Origin: Verrucomicrobiia bacterium
GTDB taxonomy: Bacteria; Verrucomicrobiota; Verrucomicrobiia; Limisphaerales; JADLHS01
Length of the DNA: 64,000 nucleotides
Direction: 5' to 3'
Assembly: GCA_023953615.1 (NCBI GenBank)
Contig: JAMLJH010000002.1
Location: 1,318,375-1,382,374 of the forward strand
The position numbers and the translations under genes are program-made. This document shows, piece after piece, positions 38,577-62,953 of this stretch (the stretch's first letter is position 1; each line of letters begins with the position of its first letter). The notes beneath the pieces were generated by a model that saw nothing but the letters and a program-made list of their open reading frames with translations, was not told the origin of the DNA and did not search any database.

Positions 38577-39255
38577 ACAATTTACTCAATACTCTGAGTT
38601 AAATTACTCAATACAGAAGCTTGGTCAAATTTTTCTTAAAGGTTTCCCATTGGCGGACCCGAGAACCAAGCATGTTGCAACTTGGCCGGTCGCCTGATTA
38701 TCACCCCGGTCTCAAAACAGGCACGCTCAGGTTTCCCAATTGTTTACCCCTCCAAAACGGCTCGCACCGGCACTTTTCTAAATCTCACTTTGATTCGGAC
38801 CGGCTGATTGCGGATTTATTGCGTTTTCACAACGAAGCGAATATCGCTACAATGTGCAAACGTAAAAATGAAGCATCCAAACCCCGTATGGGGCTCGGTT
38901 GGAGCAGTCACCGACACAGCCATTGAATTTAGAACGCTGAATCCAAAGCCATTTGTTGCGGGACTCGGCGCTCAGTTTGTTAAAAAAGCCACCCTGCATT
39001 TTTAACAGGCAAAAATGACGGCATCGTTCGATGAAGCTGTCATAGGTGTAGTCCACAAAATGCGCATTCCCAACGGAATTCCCATCTGAAAACGTCTGCC
39101 GCGTCCGTTGATGGGCCGCATTCATTTCGTAACCATGCTGGTTGATCAAGCCCATTGAGGTATAAAGCATGCTGTTGGTTAAGCGCGCCAACGAGTCGTA
39201 ATCATTCTGGATGAATTTGCTCCAAGTGTAACCCGGCGGGAGCAGATATTGCACC

Positions 39256-42200
39256 ATGATGGATCGTTTGATTCCTCAGGGGCGTTGTCGTGATTTTGTT
39301 TTGGGTTCCGGTAACTCCCCATTAAACGGTACTTGGGATGTGGTATTTCGCGGAAAGGTGGTGGCTTCTTCCGGAAGTCCCAATGGCTGGGATGTAGAGG
39401 AAGATCACACCTTTTTTCAAGGGCACATCATTACTGTTCCAACCAACGCCGTGCCAGATCAGGGCTATGAAGTGCGGGTAAAACAACGGGAATGGGCTTC
39501 AGGGCGTTCTGCCGCTTTCACTGTCTTGTCCAAGGGAGCAATTCCGAGCGCACCGGTACTTTTGCCCCTGATTCTTTCTACCAACATGTCCCCCGCATCC
39601 GGGGAAATGGTCTTGCTAACTGTGGCGATTGACAATCCTGCTCCGCTTGGAGGAGCAACCGTATCGCTAAAAACTAACGGTGTCTATTACGGAGCGGTAA
39701 CCATACCAGAAGGCCAAAGTTTGATCACCACAAACATTAACACGACGGGGGCAGCAGGAACCGCCTGTGAAATCTTTGCTTCTTACAATGGCTATCGCAA
39801 GGCCAGCGTACAATTTGTAGATGGCTGTGAGCCTCCAGACACCCCCACTGGATTTTATGCAGACGCAAATACGTCTGGAATTATTCTCAATTGGGATGTG
39901 GCGAGCGATGTAACTAGTTATAGCATAAGCCGCAGTGTGAATGACACGAATTCTTACCAGCTGATTTTCACCGGACTGGCAACCAACGTATTTATTGATA
40001 CGGATGTAATCCCCGGCACGAATTACTTTTACCAGTTGACTGGCCGACGCGTCACCTTCTATTATTATGAGGTGGTGGGGAAGTGTAACCCGGATGATGA
40101 AATATCCCTGTGCGCCTTGCCACGTTACCAAGCGCCCCCCGGCGTGACCGCCAAGTTGCGTCCAGTCAACAAGTATGGCGCTGATCTTGGTGGTTACGAT
40201 TTTTTCACCCGTCCGACCCGTTGGCGGGATTCCGGCGGCGAAACGCCGTTCGAGTGCTTTGATTTCCCCGGCTATATCCTGACTTTGCAAGACGGCACGG
40301 AATTTTACATCCAGCGGAAATTACAGGGAGAATTCACGTTCTTGTCCAACGACTGCGATGGGCAGGCGGCGGCTTACATCGGCGAGCCCACCAGTTCCGG
40401 CTTTTACGTGGAAGCCTACGGCAAACCTTATCTGGCGGAAATCCGACAACGCGGTGGCGATCGGATTTATTTCAACCGGGATGAAATCGGGACGTTCGGC
40501 CAGCCCAATTTGCGGATTCAACATTTCAACGCCAGCAACCAACTCACCCGCTCCATTTTGATTGAACGCGACGGTCAGGGCCGCATTGCGGCCATCAGCG
40601 ACCCGCTGGGCCTGAACGAAAACGGCCTGCCAATGGGCTGGCCGGCCTTGAAATACGAATACGACAGCGCCGGCAACCTGGCCAAAGTCCTGAAGCTGGT
40701 GGATCGCCTGACCGGCGCGTATCTCACCAATCAATACTACTACGAGAACAGCCAGTTCCCGCATTACATTACCGGCATCCGGGATTCACGTGGCAAACTG
40801 GTGACCCGAAATGAATACGATTCCCTCGGGCGATTGACGACCATCAAAAACGCCAGCGACCAGACCAGCCGGTTCGAGCATGATCTGGCCAACCGGCGGG
40901 AGATTCAATATGGCCGTTCCGGCGCGGCGACGCAGTTCAAGTATGACTCCCGAGGCAACGTGTTGCTGGTGACCGATCCACTCGGCCACACCAACAGCTT
41001 CACCTACGATGACAACGGCTACCGGCTTACCAGCACCGATGCCTTGGGCCGCACGACGTATTACACCAACGATGCCGATGGCAATGTTTTGGCCGTGGTG
41101 TTGCCGCATCCGCCGGGGGCGGACCCGGCGGCTTACACCACGCATTTCAGCTACGACCAGTTTGGCAATCAAACCCGGGTGCAACTGCCGACCGGAGCGG
41201 TCATCAACAACATCTACGATCCGCTCACGGGGAATTTGATTGCCGTCACAGATGGGGAGAACAACCTGATTTCCAGCACGGAATACGACGGCAACGGTTT
41301 GCCCAAAACGGAAACCGACCAGTTTGGCTCGTTGCACTATGCTTATGATGGGATGGGCAACCTGACCTTCATGACCAACTCGCTCGGACAGGTGGTGGAG
41401 AGCGGTTACGACCTCAACGGCAATCTGACGACTCTGGTGGACAACGGGCAAACCAACACCATCAGCTATGACGCCTTGAACCGGGAAACGGGCGCGGATT
41501 ACGGCAACAACATCTCCGTCAACTACGGGTTCGAGGGTGAGGGCGAATGGACGACGGTGAGCGGGCCAACATTGGGGAACATGGAGCGGCGCCTGGATGA
41601 TCAGGGCCGGTTGGCGGGGTGGGAAACGGCCAATGGTTCCTCGCCCGGTTTTGCCTACGATGTGAACGGGCGATTGCAGTATGAAACCAATTCCATCGGG
41701 GTGGTGACCTACACGGTTTATGACCTTGCCGGGCGCGCGGTGGCGACAACGAATCTGACGACCGGGGCTGGCAATGCGTATGGCTATGATGCCGCCAATC
41801 AGCGGGTGGCGGTGACCAATGCGCTGGGTTACTTCACCCGCTATGCGTATAACGTGGACGGTTCGCTGGCGGCGATGACCGATGCGTTGCAGCGGCAATG
41901 GCTGTACGACTACGACACGGGCGGGGCATGTTGCGGCGGCGGCTCGACCACCACGACGATGACGGACCCGTTGGGACGGCAGACGATTGACCTGCGTTCG
42001 GCGCATGGCCTGCCGGTTGCGACCATCTGGCGGTCGGGGATGAACGTGAGTTCCAACTACACCGAATATCTGGCGGGCATGACCACCGAGGAACAGGAGG
42101 CGGAGGAATATCCCGTGGCGATCACGGATGAGGGCGGGCGGACGCGGCGGTATGAGTATGACGAGATGGGCCGGTTGTCTCGGGCGACGGATTTGAGCGG

Positions 42201-61566: not shown

Positions 61567-62708
61567 TAGTTCCCCACGTCGTCGGGACGGATTTTGCGGG
61601 CGACCAAATTGGTCGTTGTTGTGCCGGACAACCGTCCGTCGTCAGTCAGCAACATGCCTTCGTGATACCAATAGAAAGTCAAGGGGGATTGGCCGACGGG
61701 GGTGCAGTTGACGGTAAATCCGCCGGGATTGTCGGTGAACGTGAGCACGGGTTGCTTTTCGAATATCGGCGTGGGATTCCACTCCACGCAGCCCATGGAA
61801 GGAGGATTCGCCCAAGGCCGGCCAAACAAATCAACGCCGCTGGCAACACTCGTTCCCATGCCGCGACACGGTGAGTCCGGGAACAGACTCACTCCGTCCG
61901 CTCGCAGCAGCGGCGCGGTCGCGGTGTTGCCCACCCCCGATGGCAACGGCGTGACACAGGAATACTGCGCCGACAGCCCCGCCGACAGATTTTGTACATT
62001 GTAATAAACGATCGAGTTGGTCACGTGCGATACGCCGGAAAATACTTGAACGACGCCAAAGGCCTGGTTCGACACGACGGTGCAATTCACCACGTCCGCA
62101 TTGGCGATGGCCCCGCCGATAAATGGGCTGGCTTCATTGCCGATCACCCAGCTATTCCGCACCTGGCCTGCAAACAAGCCACTGCCATAAGCAGAGGCAG
62201 TGTTTGATTTGATAATGCAGTTGGAAACCACCGCGTTTGAAGATGCACACCACACGCCACCGCCGGAGCGGAGCGTAATGTTGTCCCCCGCCGTGCGGGT
62301 CGCCCCGTCCGTTAATGTGAACCCATCCAAAATCGCCCCGTTAGTCAGCCACGCGCAGCGCACCGCCAACGGTCCATTGGTCGCGCCATTACCGCGAATC
62401 GTCGTGAAGTAAGGCCCATTCACGCTCCGCACGGTGATCGCTTTGTCCAGCGCCACCCGATTGGTCAGGTCGCCGAACATCACTTTGCCGCCGGTGGCAT
62501 AGGTGCCATTCGTCACCAACACCAAATCCCCCGGTGACGCCGCGTCAATCGCATGTTGGATATTGGTCGCCGCCGTGGCCCAACTCGCGTACGGCTCGGC
62601 GGGGCTTGGACTCTGCAAATTCACATATAACGTGGCGGCACTACTTAGATTACACGCAAAGGCCAGAAATGAAATCGCAAGGCAAACGGTGCGGATGGCG
62701 GTTTTCAT
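61530..62708 (-). CDS. Secreted right-handed beta-helix protein with C-terminal (incomplete) Ig-like domain; probable toxin carrier
   Basis: MKTAIRTVCLAISFLAFACNLSSA is a signal peptide. ATLYVNLQSPSPAEPYASWATAATNIQHAIDAASPGDLVLVTNGTY is a beta-helix cap typical of the DUF1565/pectate-lyase fold. The Ig I-set motif PDDVGNYWMVVT is cut off before its last strand. The stop lies 37 nt inside the next ORF. Confidence 0.6.
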   Translation of the reverse strand: MKTAIRTVCLAISFLAFACNLSSAATLYVNLQSPSPAEPYASWATAATNIQHAIDAASPGDLVLVTNGTYATGGKVMFGDLTNRVALDKAITVRSVNGPYFTTIRGNGATNGPLAVRCAWLTNGAILDGFTLTDGATRTAGDNITLRSGGGVWCASSNAVVSNCIIKSNTASAYGSGLFAGQVRNSWVIGNEASPFIGGAIANADVVNCTVVSNQAFGVVQVFSGVSHVTNSIVYYNVQNLSAGLSAQYSCVTPLPSGVGNTATAPLLRADGVSLFPDSPCRGMGTSVASGVDLFGRPWANPPSMGCVEWNPTPIFEKQPVLTFTDNPGGFTVNCTPVGQSPLTFYWYHEGMLLTDDGRLSGTTTTNLVARKIRPDDVGNYWMVVTCLLGIT

Positions 62709-62953
62709 GGTTTGGTTACTGTTGGTGATAAGCTCTACCATCACTGCCCCCTTGATTCAAGCGGAAGTCGCGCGTGGGCGACTCGGCCGGTGCAGGAAAC
62801 CAGAAATGCGTTCTAGCTGCGGAGCCGCGTTAGACGGTAGCCCACGGCGTTATAGCGGTTTAATTAAAGTTGTAGCCGTGGCACCGAACAAGTGTAACCC
62901 AATGAAGGTGGGGTCCGGATGGGGAATGGCGCCTCTGTCCGCGAGGTTTTGGA

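Follow-up and report, generated by a model that had tools for sequence, protein, structure and literature searches.

WapA of Gram-positive bacteria is the studied example of the Sec-dependent class of RHS polymorphic toxins. This class, also called the type II secretion system (T2SS) class, was described in 2012, Verrucomicrobia included, together with arrays of toxin cassettes (Zhang et al., PMC3482391), and section 19 of the same paper reported RHS toxins in which an 'inactive' transglutaminase (TGase) domain follows the signal peptide. In Neisseria, the outer-membrane protein MafA is encoded beside the Sec-dependent toxin MafB and is required for MafB secretion (PMC7738311), and the autoproteolysis aspartates of P. 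protegens RhsA are D1324 and D1346 (PMC8765631). The present analysis concerned a stretch of 64,000 nt (the window) from a metagenome-assembled genome (MAG) of a Limisphaerales-type member of the Verrucomicrobiae, in which locus tags M9920_16035-16095 cover an RHS locus. This region is likely to be a lineage-specific, Sec-dependent ('T2SS-class') RHS polymorphic-toxin locus, most of which is wreckage. Read from the sequence, two small toxin/immunity pairs (tox1/imm1 and tox2/imm2) and the gene of a TGase-like protein are complete, and the large RHS genes (RHS1 and RHS2) are headless or broken. The locus probably holds an undescribed, cage-less RHS variant within this known kind of locus.

Full-length relatives of the large genes (proteins P0121 and P0273-278, and locus L104) share with the Sec class a signal peptide, LamG, Ig and VWA domains, an RHS shell, a core end and a variable toxin, followed by a downstream immunity gene and then by toxin/immunity cassettes; the large genes of the window differ in lacking signal peptides and large parts. 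In a diderm host the class further requires an outer-membrane step, which its definition does not explain. Arrays of toxin and immunity genes downstream of a head RHS gene are also known from orphan rhs-CT/rhsI (cdiA-CT/cdiI) modules, and as in these each small toxin has at its start the conserved RHS core end, a possible recombination handle. Classical orphan rhs-CT modules are not known to have a start codon or an export signal, whereas each cassette analysed here starts at its own start codon and encodes a Sec signal peptide that varies in sequence and is conserved in its features. With MafA/MafB/MafI the locus shares the succession of signal peptide, conserved N-terminal module, polymorphic C-terminal toxin and immunity gene, and an envelope-anchored accessory protein encoded immediately upstream of the toxin. 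The likeness is organisational only, as neither DUF1020/MafB-N nor MafA gave a Pfam match in the toxins or the TGase-like protein; the conserved module here is the RHS core tip, and the companion is a TGase-like/TPR protein of inferred function. In the TGase-fused RHS toxins, too, a TGase-fold module associated with RHS stands right after a signal or transmembrane segment; here, unlike there, it is encoded by a separate gene, is fused to TPR instead of RHS repeats and has an invariant catalytic triad. Type VI secretion system (T6SS) Rhs effectors and TcB-TcC resemble the RHS genes of the locus in their YD-repeat shell, in a C-terminal core with an Asp pair ~22-23 residues apart before the toxin, and in the variable toxin itself. 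They differ in that the locus has no PAAR/VgrG/Eag or SpvB/beta-propeller components and that its small toxins are without any shell: PAAR/prePAAR, a VgrG-binding N-terminus and T6SS/Eag genes gave no Pfam or NCBIfam match, and SpvB, the TcB beta-propeller and TcA no match, in the RHS pieces (RHS1, RHS2N and RHS2C) or the other genes of the window.

tox1 (M9920_16085; 57549-58376, minus strand) encodes 275 aa, comprising a signal peptide (58302-58376), an RHS tip (58182-58301) and a 210-aa toxin, and tox2 (M9920_16095; 59306-60178, minus strand) encodes 290 aa, comprising a signal peptide, the RHS core tip and a putative DUF2235 alpha/beta-hydrolase domain (Pfam, NCBIfam). Both begin with MKSKRTLIT(A/T)LSAGL(F/L)LFATHS(A/T)EA, that is, a Met-Lys-rich n-region, a hydrophobic core and an A-x-A motif, with predicted cleavage between Ala and Phe. 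The leader runs straight into FYNPSTGRWLSRDPI...D-x-LGL, which makes up the final ~40 residues of the RHS core; the tip corresponds to positions 37-76 of the 76-position Rhs_assc_core model (TIGR03696, NCBIfam) and starts directly after residue ~25. A 138-bp repeat (60060-60197 and 58258-58395, minus strand, 93.5% identity) forms the constant 5' module of the two cassettes and reaches from 19 bases before either start codon through the signal peptide into the tip. The DUF2235 match of tox2 (PF09994, E=5.3e-6) scored 26.4 bits against a cut-off of 27, and the identical NCBI protein is precomputed to the same family; a GWSRG motif (GxSxG type, 59690-59704) was conserved in P0004, P0005, P0008, P0015 and P0022, and tox2 is a putative Tle1-like lipase. 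Presumed immunity genes were found for each toxin: imm1 (57154-57576, minus strand; GC content at third codon positions, GC3, z=-6.0) encodes a small protein with a transmembrane anchor, imm2 (58851-59378, minus strand) a lipoprotein-type protein whose homologues follow tox2 homologues in L008 and L173, and imm3 (60319-60885, minus strand; GC3 z=-7.2) another lipoprotein-type protein. By translation, each of the three has a transmembrane segment or a lipobox at its N-terminus, which fits toxins that pass through, and act in, the periplasm. The third toxin, tox3 (60889-61566, minus strand), has no signal peptide, and its RHS tip is reduced to the final ~20 residues (GGYLFAGNNLVECFDYLGMW). The start of tox3 overlaps the 3' end of a gene (61530-62744, minus strand, GC3 z=+0.2) for a 404-aa protein with a signal peptide, a right-handed beta-helix and one Ig domain (Pfam), possibly what is left of a larger surface protein; the two were probably brought together by a deletion.

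A protein search with tox2 returned 123 proteins, and the design was scored in the best 120. The combination of signal peptide and RHS tip was present in 80 of these (87 under a slightly looser rule), so that by sequence comparison the design is that of a large family. Its members have a leader of ~26 residues (charged n-region, hydrophobic core, A-x-A), the tip and then 100-240 variable residues. In the family consensus (n=87) A-x-A is followed at the cleavage site by FYNPSTGRWLSRDPI; K or R occurred in the n-region of 74/87, both catalytic-type aspartates of the tip were retained, and their spacing was 23 in 45/87. Some contigs (L008) carried five or more such toxins. The leaders vary in sequence yet keep the features of signal peptides, which argues for selection for export. 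The initial annotation had found the export of the effectors puzzling; it had overlooked the signal peptides of tox1 and tox2 and the anchored immunity proteins. Given Sec-type leaders and anchored immunity, the inner-membrane part of the puzzle would be answered by export through ordinary Sec; passage of the small toxins across the outer membrane would be a further step.

The TGase-like protein (M9920_16075; 56062-57060, minus strand) combines Transglut_core2 with TPR, is predicted to be membrane- or lipid-anchored and has a Cys176/His202/Asp228 triad. The copy in the window matched Transglut_core2 at E=6.8e-5 (22.8 bits, cut-off 23.5), and a match was obtained in 26/26 family members scanned (best 1.8e-10). 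C176, H202 and D228 were invariant in alignments of 26 and 43 sequences, and the N-terminus in the family is a hydrophobic anchor or a lipobox; comparison with PDB sequences returned TPR noise only. Counterparts 57-59% identical lie inside the same type of toxin array in L008 and L009. A metagenome scan with a three-sequence alignment of the TGase-like protein gave 80 loci, 68 of them with enough sequence, and these constitute an independent sample with more varied tips. A toxin gene with signal peptide and RHS tip directly followed the TGase-like stop codon in 42/68 loci (26/40 clusters at 90% identity), and in 41 of the 42 the tip motif lay 69-156 nt downstream of the TGase-like gene; as background, the same motif occurred 4 times in 1.16 Mb of unrelated Verrucomicrobiota loci. 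The TGase-like copies were 43-75% identical to that of the window, and the 37 complete toxins downstream of them formed 26 unrelated C-terminal clusters. Long loci read, on a single strand, from an RHS2-type head RHS gene and its immunity gene through 0-2 toxins to the TGase-like gene and 1-3 further toxins. All-against-all clustering of the open reading frames (ORFs) of the TGase loci yielded no further recurrent accessory gene, only shadow ORFs. In the reverse test, starting from toxins on four further long contigs, a TGase-like gene was found within 10 kb in 3/4; on the fourth (L170), the toxin stands directly after a T2SS pseudopilin-secretin operon. In this stretch of L170 (1-10768; ENA ERZ25039490 contig_7141), the T2SS-like operon is encoded on the same strand as the toxin and comprises pseudopilins I/J/K, a PilM-like protein and a 1067-aa secretin; downstream of the toxin come another toxin gene, which is broken, and a small gene of the Omp85 family.

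In the scheme proposed here, the small toxins would cross the inner membrane by Sec into the periplasm, the producing cell would be protected from them by the anchored immunity proteins, and the toxins would act on the envelope of the target cell. Release or surface display would be helped by the TGase-like protein (through cleavage at, or cross-linking through, the tip), by a T2SS, or by both, and the TGase-like protein could be a dedicated processing, anchoring or export helper by analogy with MafA for MafB. As the small toxins are without a shell, the known cleavage within the cocoon cannot simply be assumed for them. It is a tentative proposal that the small toxins and the TGase-like/TPR protein make up an undescribed cage-less offshoot of RHS in which the companion cleaves, cross-links or escorts the ~40-residue tip and so supplies the processing or outer-membrane step. 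RHS1, the RHS2 pieces, an orphan RHS fragment and tox3 would not be exported and would be relics, at most a recombination reserve. No description of toxins with signal peptide and RHS tip as a family, or of their link to the TGase-like gene, was found in the literature, the coverage of which was incomplete, so that this is absence of evidence only.

RHS1 (39256-44511, plus strand, 1751 aa) had been taken for an intact RHS toxin; HMM, BLASTP and tblastn comparisons showed a gene that is 5'-truncated and internally deleted relative to giants of the P0121 type. RHS/YD repeats were matched by PF05593 (E=5.8e-67, in 7 stretches) and TIGR01643 (E=2.2e-39). The RHS-associated core end (residues 1431-1518; 43546-43812; TIGR03696, E=7.9e-16) ends in ...NNPHVYSDPSGQF, which fits the PxxxxDPxGL-type motif preceding the toxin. 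The C-terminal toxin of about 233 aa (43813-44511) has RPDF...IGDFKLSG in common with the toxin of P0121, and its motif alone suggests a PD-(D/E)xK-type nuclease; neither Pfam nor PDB sequences gave a match, and the single-sequence AlphaFold2 (AF2) model was unusable (predicted local distance difference test, pLDDT, 35). The absence of a trafficking domain noted initially was upheld, in that no domain match to an N-terminal trafficking module (signal peptide, PAAR, TpsA-like or LXG) and no hydrophobic N-terminus was detected; this calls for no unknown export route, since ~1,806 N-terminal residues, and with them the signal peptide, have been lost. With residues 1-460 as the query, a word-indexed protein search gave no match and an exhaustive HMMER search did find homologues. 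By HMMER, residues 2-263 normally sit deep within giant proteins (1807-2067 of 4791 aa in P0121, 1721-1981 of 4200 in P0125, 2278-2537 of 4784 in P0138, and likewise internally in P0143, P0158 and P0160), and residues 262-459 align with the start of the RHS region. BLASTP and tblastn placed RHS1 2-265 on P0121 1807-2069 and RHS1 262-1747 on P0121 3334-4783, with 60% identity across 1,507 aligned positions; the remaining parts of P0121 were encoded nowhere in the window. The in-frame deletion junction lies at about 40021-40074, where NYFYQLT is joined to GRRVTFYYYEV, and ~1,265 internal residues are missing in addition to the N-terminal ones.

P0121 starts with a hydrophobic, signal-like N-terminus, followed by Ig, LamG, VWA, Big_7 and DUF6531 domains before the RHS shell; it has an RHS1-type toxin at its C-terminus, and an ankyrin gene comes next (locus L007). 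A strongly hydrophobic N-terminal segment was found in the six giant homologues whose gene models have a complete N-terminus (P0121 and five others). Judged by these alignments, RHS1 is the remnant of a surface RHS protein of ~4,800 aa with the order signal/anchor, Ig/LamG/VWA/Big_7, RHS and toxin. In place of the missing 5' part stands low-GC DNA (0.47) with a 136-aa ORF (M9920_16035; 38847-39257, minus strand) that is divergent from RHS1 and overlaps its start codon; it gave no family match beyond a chance-level YD_repeat (E=0.48) and could be a scrap of another RHS gene. The junction of the flanking AAA gene, this ORF and RHS1 was present in three independent Logan assemblies and is therefore not a binning artefact. 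A promoter/terminator scan upstream of RHS1 gave no signal above chance. RHS1 is followed by a gene for an ankyrin-repeat + DUF4253 protein (44540-46057, plus strand; Pfam; GC3 z=-2.6), presumed to be its cytoplasmic immunity protein, as an ankyrin gene likewise follows P0121, and then by the orphan internal RHS fragment (46058-46864, plus strand), which has neither core end nor toxin and by sequence comparison is 68% identical to RHS1 1155-1419 and 71% identical to P0121 4194-4461. Three short-read assemblies from different SRA runs (L001-L003) end at the identical base, in RHS1 codon 953 (window ~42115), a hint of a repeat or second RHS copy elsewhere or of a strain-variable boundary. In L007, the gene upstream of P0121 (6424-7866) encodes a helical, TPR-like protein of 480 aa whose N-terminus has a hydrophobic segment; the stop of this gene overlaps the RHS start by 4 nt, and it had no Pfam match and no counterpart in the window.

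RHS2 is represented by two pieces on the plus strand. By homologue comparison RHS2N (49743-52328) is the N-terminal and middle piece of a Sec-type RHS protein of ~2,000 aa, without the signal peptide and the ~70 first residues present in homologues; P0273, P0276 and P0278 have a hydrophobic signal-like start followed by long RHS arrays. RHS2C (53270-54598, HMM) is the C-terminal shell piece, cut within the core tip at ...TGTWLNRDPQ, with the toxin lost. Between them, 940 bp of low-GC filler (52329-53269) stand in place of ~460-500 aa of the RHS2 middle, and a lipoprotein ORF within it (lipobox LVLCSC; 52693-53205, plus strand; GC3 z=-3.3) may be a stranded immunity gene. In four metagenome loci (L099, L100, L104 and L118; two of the four ORFs end at a contig edge), one ORF of 1,494-2,005 codons matched RHS2N 272-861 and then RHS2C 7-443, with a gap of 457-500 aa between the matches; RHS2N and RHS2C are therefore remnants of one gene type. 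By comparison with these ORFs, the start and ~460-500 central residues of RHS2 are gone, and insertion sequence (IS) fragments of the IS21 and IS3 types have removed its tip and toxin. The debris (plus strand) consists of the IstA C-end (54618-54827), the N-part of IstB (54845-55180, only residues 1-106 of 238) and an IS3-type transposase end YNEARPHSALEYLAP (55168-55242); no complete IS21 or IS3 transposase with terminal repeats was found.

Upstream of RHS2N lies M9920_16055 (47771-49762, plus strand), whose translation is a Gly/Thr/Asn/Ala-rich repeat protein; a hydrophobic segment at its N-terminus depends on use of the long start. The 3' end of the ORF runs 20 nt into RHS2N in a different frame, and the same ORF was seen in 6 independent Logan contigs. 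Its initial labelling as a PATR protein was not supported, PATR repeats (PF12951/TIGR02601) giving no match at Pfam E<=5 or NCBIfam E<=1. The idea that the gene upstream of RHS2N is a conserved RHS partner was rejected after comparison with L007, L008 and L104: in L007 the gene upstream of P0121 encodes the unrelated TPR-like protein, in L008 a 590/867-aa pair that by eye resembles sugar-degrading enzymes has no similarity to the pair of the window, and in L104 the beta-helix gene before the RHS gene has no significant similarity to either beta-helix gene of the window. The remaining parts named in the initial annotation, that is, the ankyrin gene after RHS1, the orphan fragment, the fragmented second RHS gene, the IS21/IS3 debris, the TGase-like protein and three small toxin-immunity modules (57154-61566), were recovered as such at the positions given above.

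A Sec-dependent locus now largely in ruins has to be weighed against readings in which the parts are differently deployed. Working effectors on unrelated scaffolds, with RHS1 a complete signal-less protein exported by unknown, possibly PVC-specific (Planctomycetes-Verrucomicrobia-Chlamydiae) machinery elsewhere, would accord with an RHS1 ORF that runs uninterrupted through 1751 aa, retains an intact core end and a toxin and is followed by an immunity gene, and with the absence of known secretion genes from the window. This is improbable, as the N-terminus of RHS1 matches an internal part of giant homologues, which themselves open with a hydrophobic signal or anchor, its N-terminal module was seen only inside longer genes, ~1,265 more residues are missing, breakage is plain in RHS2, the orphan fragment and tox3, and it is the complete small toxins that bear Sec signals. 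The scaffolds, too, are less unrelated than the initial annotation had it, a description to be rejected in part only: RHS2N and RHS2C belong to one RHS type, which is the usual head gene of loci with small toxins and a TGase-like gene. Still less probable is a role of the toxins as T6SS or Tc-type cargo with the machinery outside the window. RHS proteins are common cargo of T6SS and Tc (PMC8765631), and the putative Tle1-like lipase domain of tox2 points to a family first described as T6SS effectors. PAAR, VgrG, DUF4150, SpvB and TcB-type beta-propeller matches are, however, absent from all RHS pieces, full-length relatives have an N-terminal signal or anchor and adhesin-type domains instead, the small toxins have predicted cleavable Sec signals, which T6SS cargo lacks, and immunity is anchored outside the cytoplasm, as expected for toxin transit via the producer's periplasm. 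A silent reserve, in which RHS1, the orphan piece, tox3 and perhaps tox1/tox2 are recombination donors for a full-length RHS gene elsewhere, is a possibility to be taken more seriously, though we think it the less probable course. Three assemblies stopping at the same RHS1 base are typical of a repeat shared with another copy, tips of head RHS and small toxins share ...NPS(T/S)GRWL(S/N)RDPI..., tox1 and tox2 have their 138-bp module in common, and cassette exchange is an accepted model (PMC3482391). Against this, the window holds no near-identical partner (RHS1 and the orphan fragment share 68% protein identity and gave no blastn match), the assembly break could reflect strain variation, and leaders that diverge across lineages while keeping signal-peptide features point to selection for export and not just to a recombination handle.

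Several observations weigh against the preferred reading of a Sec-dependent locus with a TGase-like companion. The signal peptides were called by simple rules (charge, hydropathy, A-x-A) and not by a trained predictor, the near-invariance of FYNPSTGRWLSRDPI among the proteins found with tox2 is partly an ascertainment effect of the word-based search, and RHS1 is still an uninterrupted 5.2-kb ORF with an immunity gene, which could serve in some way. The single-sequence AF2 model of the TGase-like protein reached a pLDDT of 35, its fold assignment resting on HMM matches, and linkage to toxins is no proof of function. No toxin directly follows the TGase-like gene in ~35% of loci, and in the window that gene is preceded by toxin/immunity pairs and followed by IS debris rather than a toxin; the stretch downstream of it contained no remnant of a toxin with signal peptide and RHS tip. 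The array of the window reads towards the broken RHS2, not away from it, and an IS-linked inversion or deletion would explain both this orientation and the missing toxin. The missing downstream toxins, here and in about one third of the loci, would equally suit a TGase-like/TPR gene that is no functional partner: a passenger neighbour, a protein for broad-spectrum immunity or repair, or one that helps only the head RHS. SirB1-type homologues with Transglut_core2 and TPR occur outside toxin loci, which counts in the same direction, as does the interpretation of TGase domains fused to RHS toxins as passive anchors (PMC3482391). We regard such a gene without partnership as a possible but not a favoured account: toxins stand on both sides of the TGase-like gene in L104, L107, L118 and L163, the gene is conserved (43-75%) while the adjacent toxins span 26 clusters, it is absent from the 78 of 80 loci anchored on the flanking NamZ gene that are without arrays, and it has an invariant catalytic triad, in contrast to the fused versions described as 'inactive'.

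The initial annotation had described a lower-GC island and suggested windowed GC, codon usage and synteny comparison as checks. Mean GC was indeed lower in the region (0.543) than in the backbone (0.581), and strongly so at 56-61.5 kb, but the composition is a mosaic. Low stretches were at 38.6-40.6 kb (0.47-0.52) and 56-61.5 kb (0.43-0.51), and GC was backbone-like (0.57-0.62) at 40.6-44.5, 46-49.8, 53.3-56 and 61.5-62.7 kb. GC3 z-scores were computed against 22 backbone genes. The toxin, immunity and TGase-like genes fell below the backbone (tox/imm1-3 -3.0 to -7.4; TGase-like gene -3.8; Ank gene -2.6; lipoprotein ORF -3.3), whereas the RHS bodies and beta-helix genes matched it (RHS1 -0.3; beta-helix gene +0.2; PATR-like gene +1.9). 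We infer that the low-GC patches are toxin/immunity cassettes exchanged on native scaffolds, rather than one transferred island. As had been stated, family scans of the 64-kb window showed no secretion machinery or integrase; no such gene and no tRNA gene lay in or beside the region, and self-comparison of the window found no flanking direct repeats marking its borders. The sole tRNA of the window was tRNA-Leu(CAA) (10213-10299), and the Rfam scan gave nothing else. A single-unit genomic island was thus rejected, given the lack of an integrase, the lone tRNA at 10.2 kb, the lack of border repeats and the mosaic composition. On the NamZ side, only 2/80 NamZ-anchored Verrucomicrobiota loci (L010 and L031) had RHS material beside NamZ; the region is non-syntenic, and the idea of the NamZ flank as a general RHS hotspot was rejected on the same count. 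Together, the HMM hits, GC3 values and synteny bear out a lineage-specific polymorphic-toxin locus with foreign-looking toxin/immunity cassettes.

The region is bordered on the left by a gene for an AAA_14/DUF4143 ATPase (MCO5053787; 37389-38576, minus strand; Pfam; GC3 z=+0.5) and on the right by the C-terminal part of the NamZ (DUF1343) gene (63378-64000, minus strand; Pfam), the synteny anchor, whose close relatives are from Verrucomicrobiota/Limisphaerales MAGs. Exact look-up of the left-flank AAA gene returned only contigs with the identical arrangement. Its 90%-identity cluster comprised 343 sequences from many metagenomes, which is unusually widespread for a flanking gene, and the ATPase gene may itself be mobile. 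The closest relative on the NamZ side, L010 (NamZ 95% identical), carries, at 10987-12658, a different short RHS gene (374 aa, no signal peptide) and a 180-aa downstream ORF (presumed immunity), which converge on NamZ; beyond them lie genes that by eye resemble PEPCK, GltS and GGT, housekeeping genes absent from the window. Headless short RHS genes of ~370-550 aa recur in L008 and L009. Seven loci (L012, L021, L023, L025, L026, L031 and L034) come from GTDB-representative records titled 'uncultured Bifidobacterium sp.' or 'Bifidobacteriaceae'; their NamZ proteins are 69-86% identical to that of the window, the titles look mislabelled, and L031 additionally bears a Verrucomicrobia-type toxin array. 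The first 38.5 kb of the window hold ordinary metabolic and regulatory genes (FAD oxidoreductase, major facilitator superfamily transporters, glutamate dehydrogenase, ParB, PfkB, Def and E1/E2/E3 of a 2-oxoacid dehydrogenase complex). Prepilin-like genes of the DUF1559/N-methyl type, a family that PVC bacteria typically have and that is related to T2SS pseudopilins, were found at 10529-11644 and 30349-31296 (both plus strand), and a truncated third inside the toxin region (47260-47586, minus strand), whose translation has the prepilin-type N-terminal methylation motif (GFSLMELLAV...). Shortly before tRNA-Leu(CAA) there is a tandem array of 161-bp units (9381-10110; 3.4 copies, 93% identity), flanked on either side by degenerate copies, and local GC falls to 0.52 around it.

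For annotation, the locus is a warning that an RHS gene can be a headless relic even when its ORF is long and open, its core good and an immunity gene present; where no trafficking domain is found, comparison with full-length relatives should precede any proposal of a new export route. If the tentative proposal of a cage-less offshoot with a processing or escorting companion is true, it would be one answer to how Verrucomicrobiota and similar diderms deploy RHS-derived toxins from loci without T6SS parts. If the TGase-like partner processes or exports the toxins, the role of the RHS tip outside the cocoon would become directly testable, and polymorphic toxins of soil and freshwater phyla that have been little studied would be seen to have an accessory pathway of a new kind.

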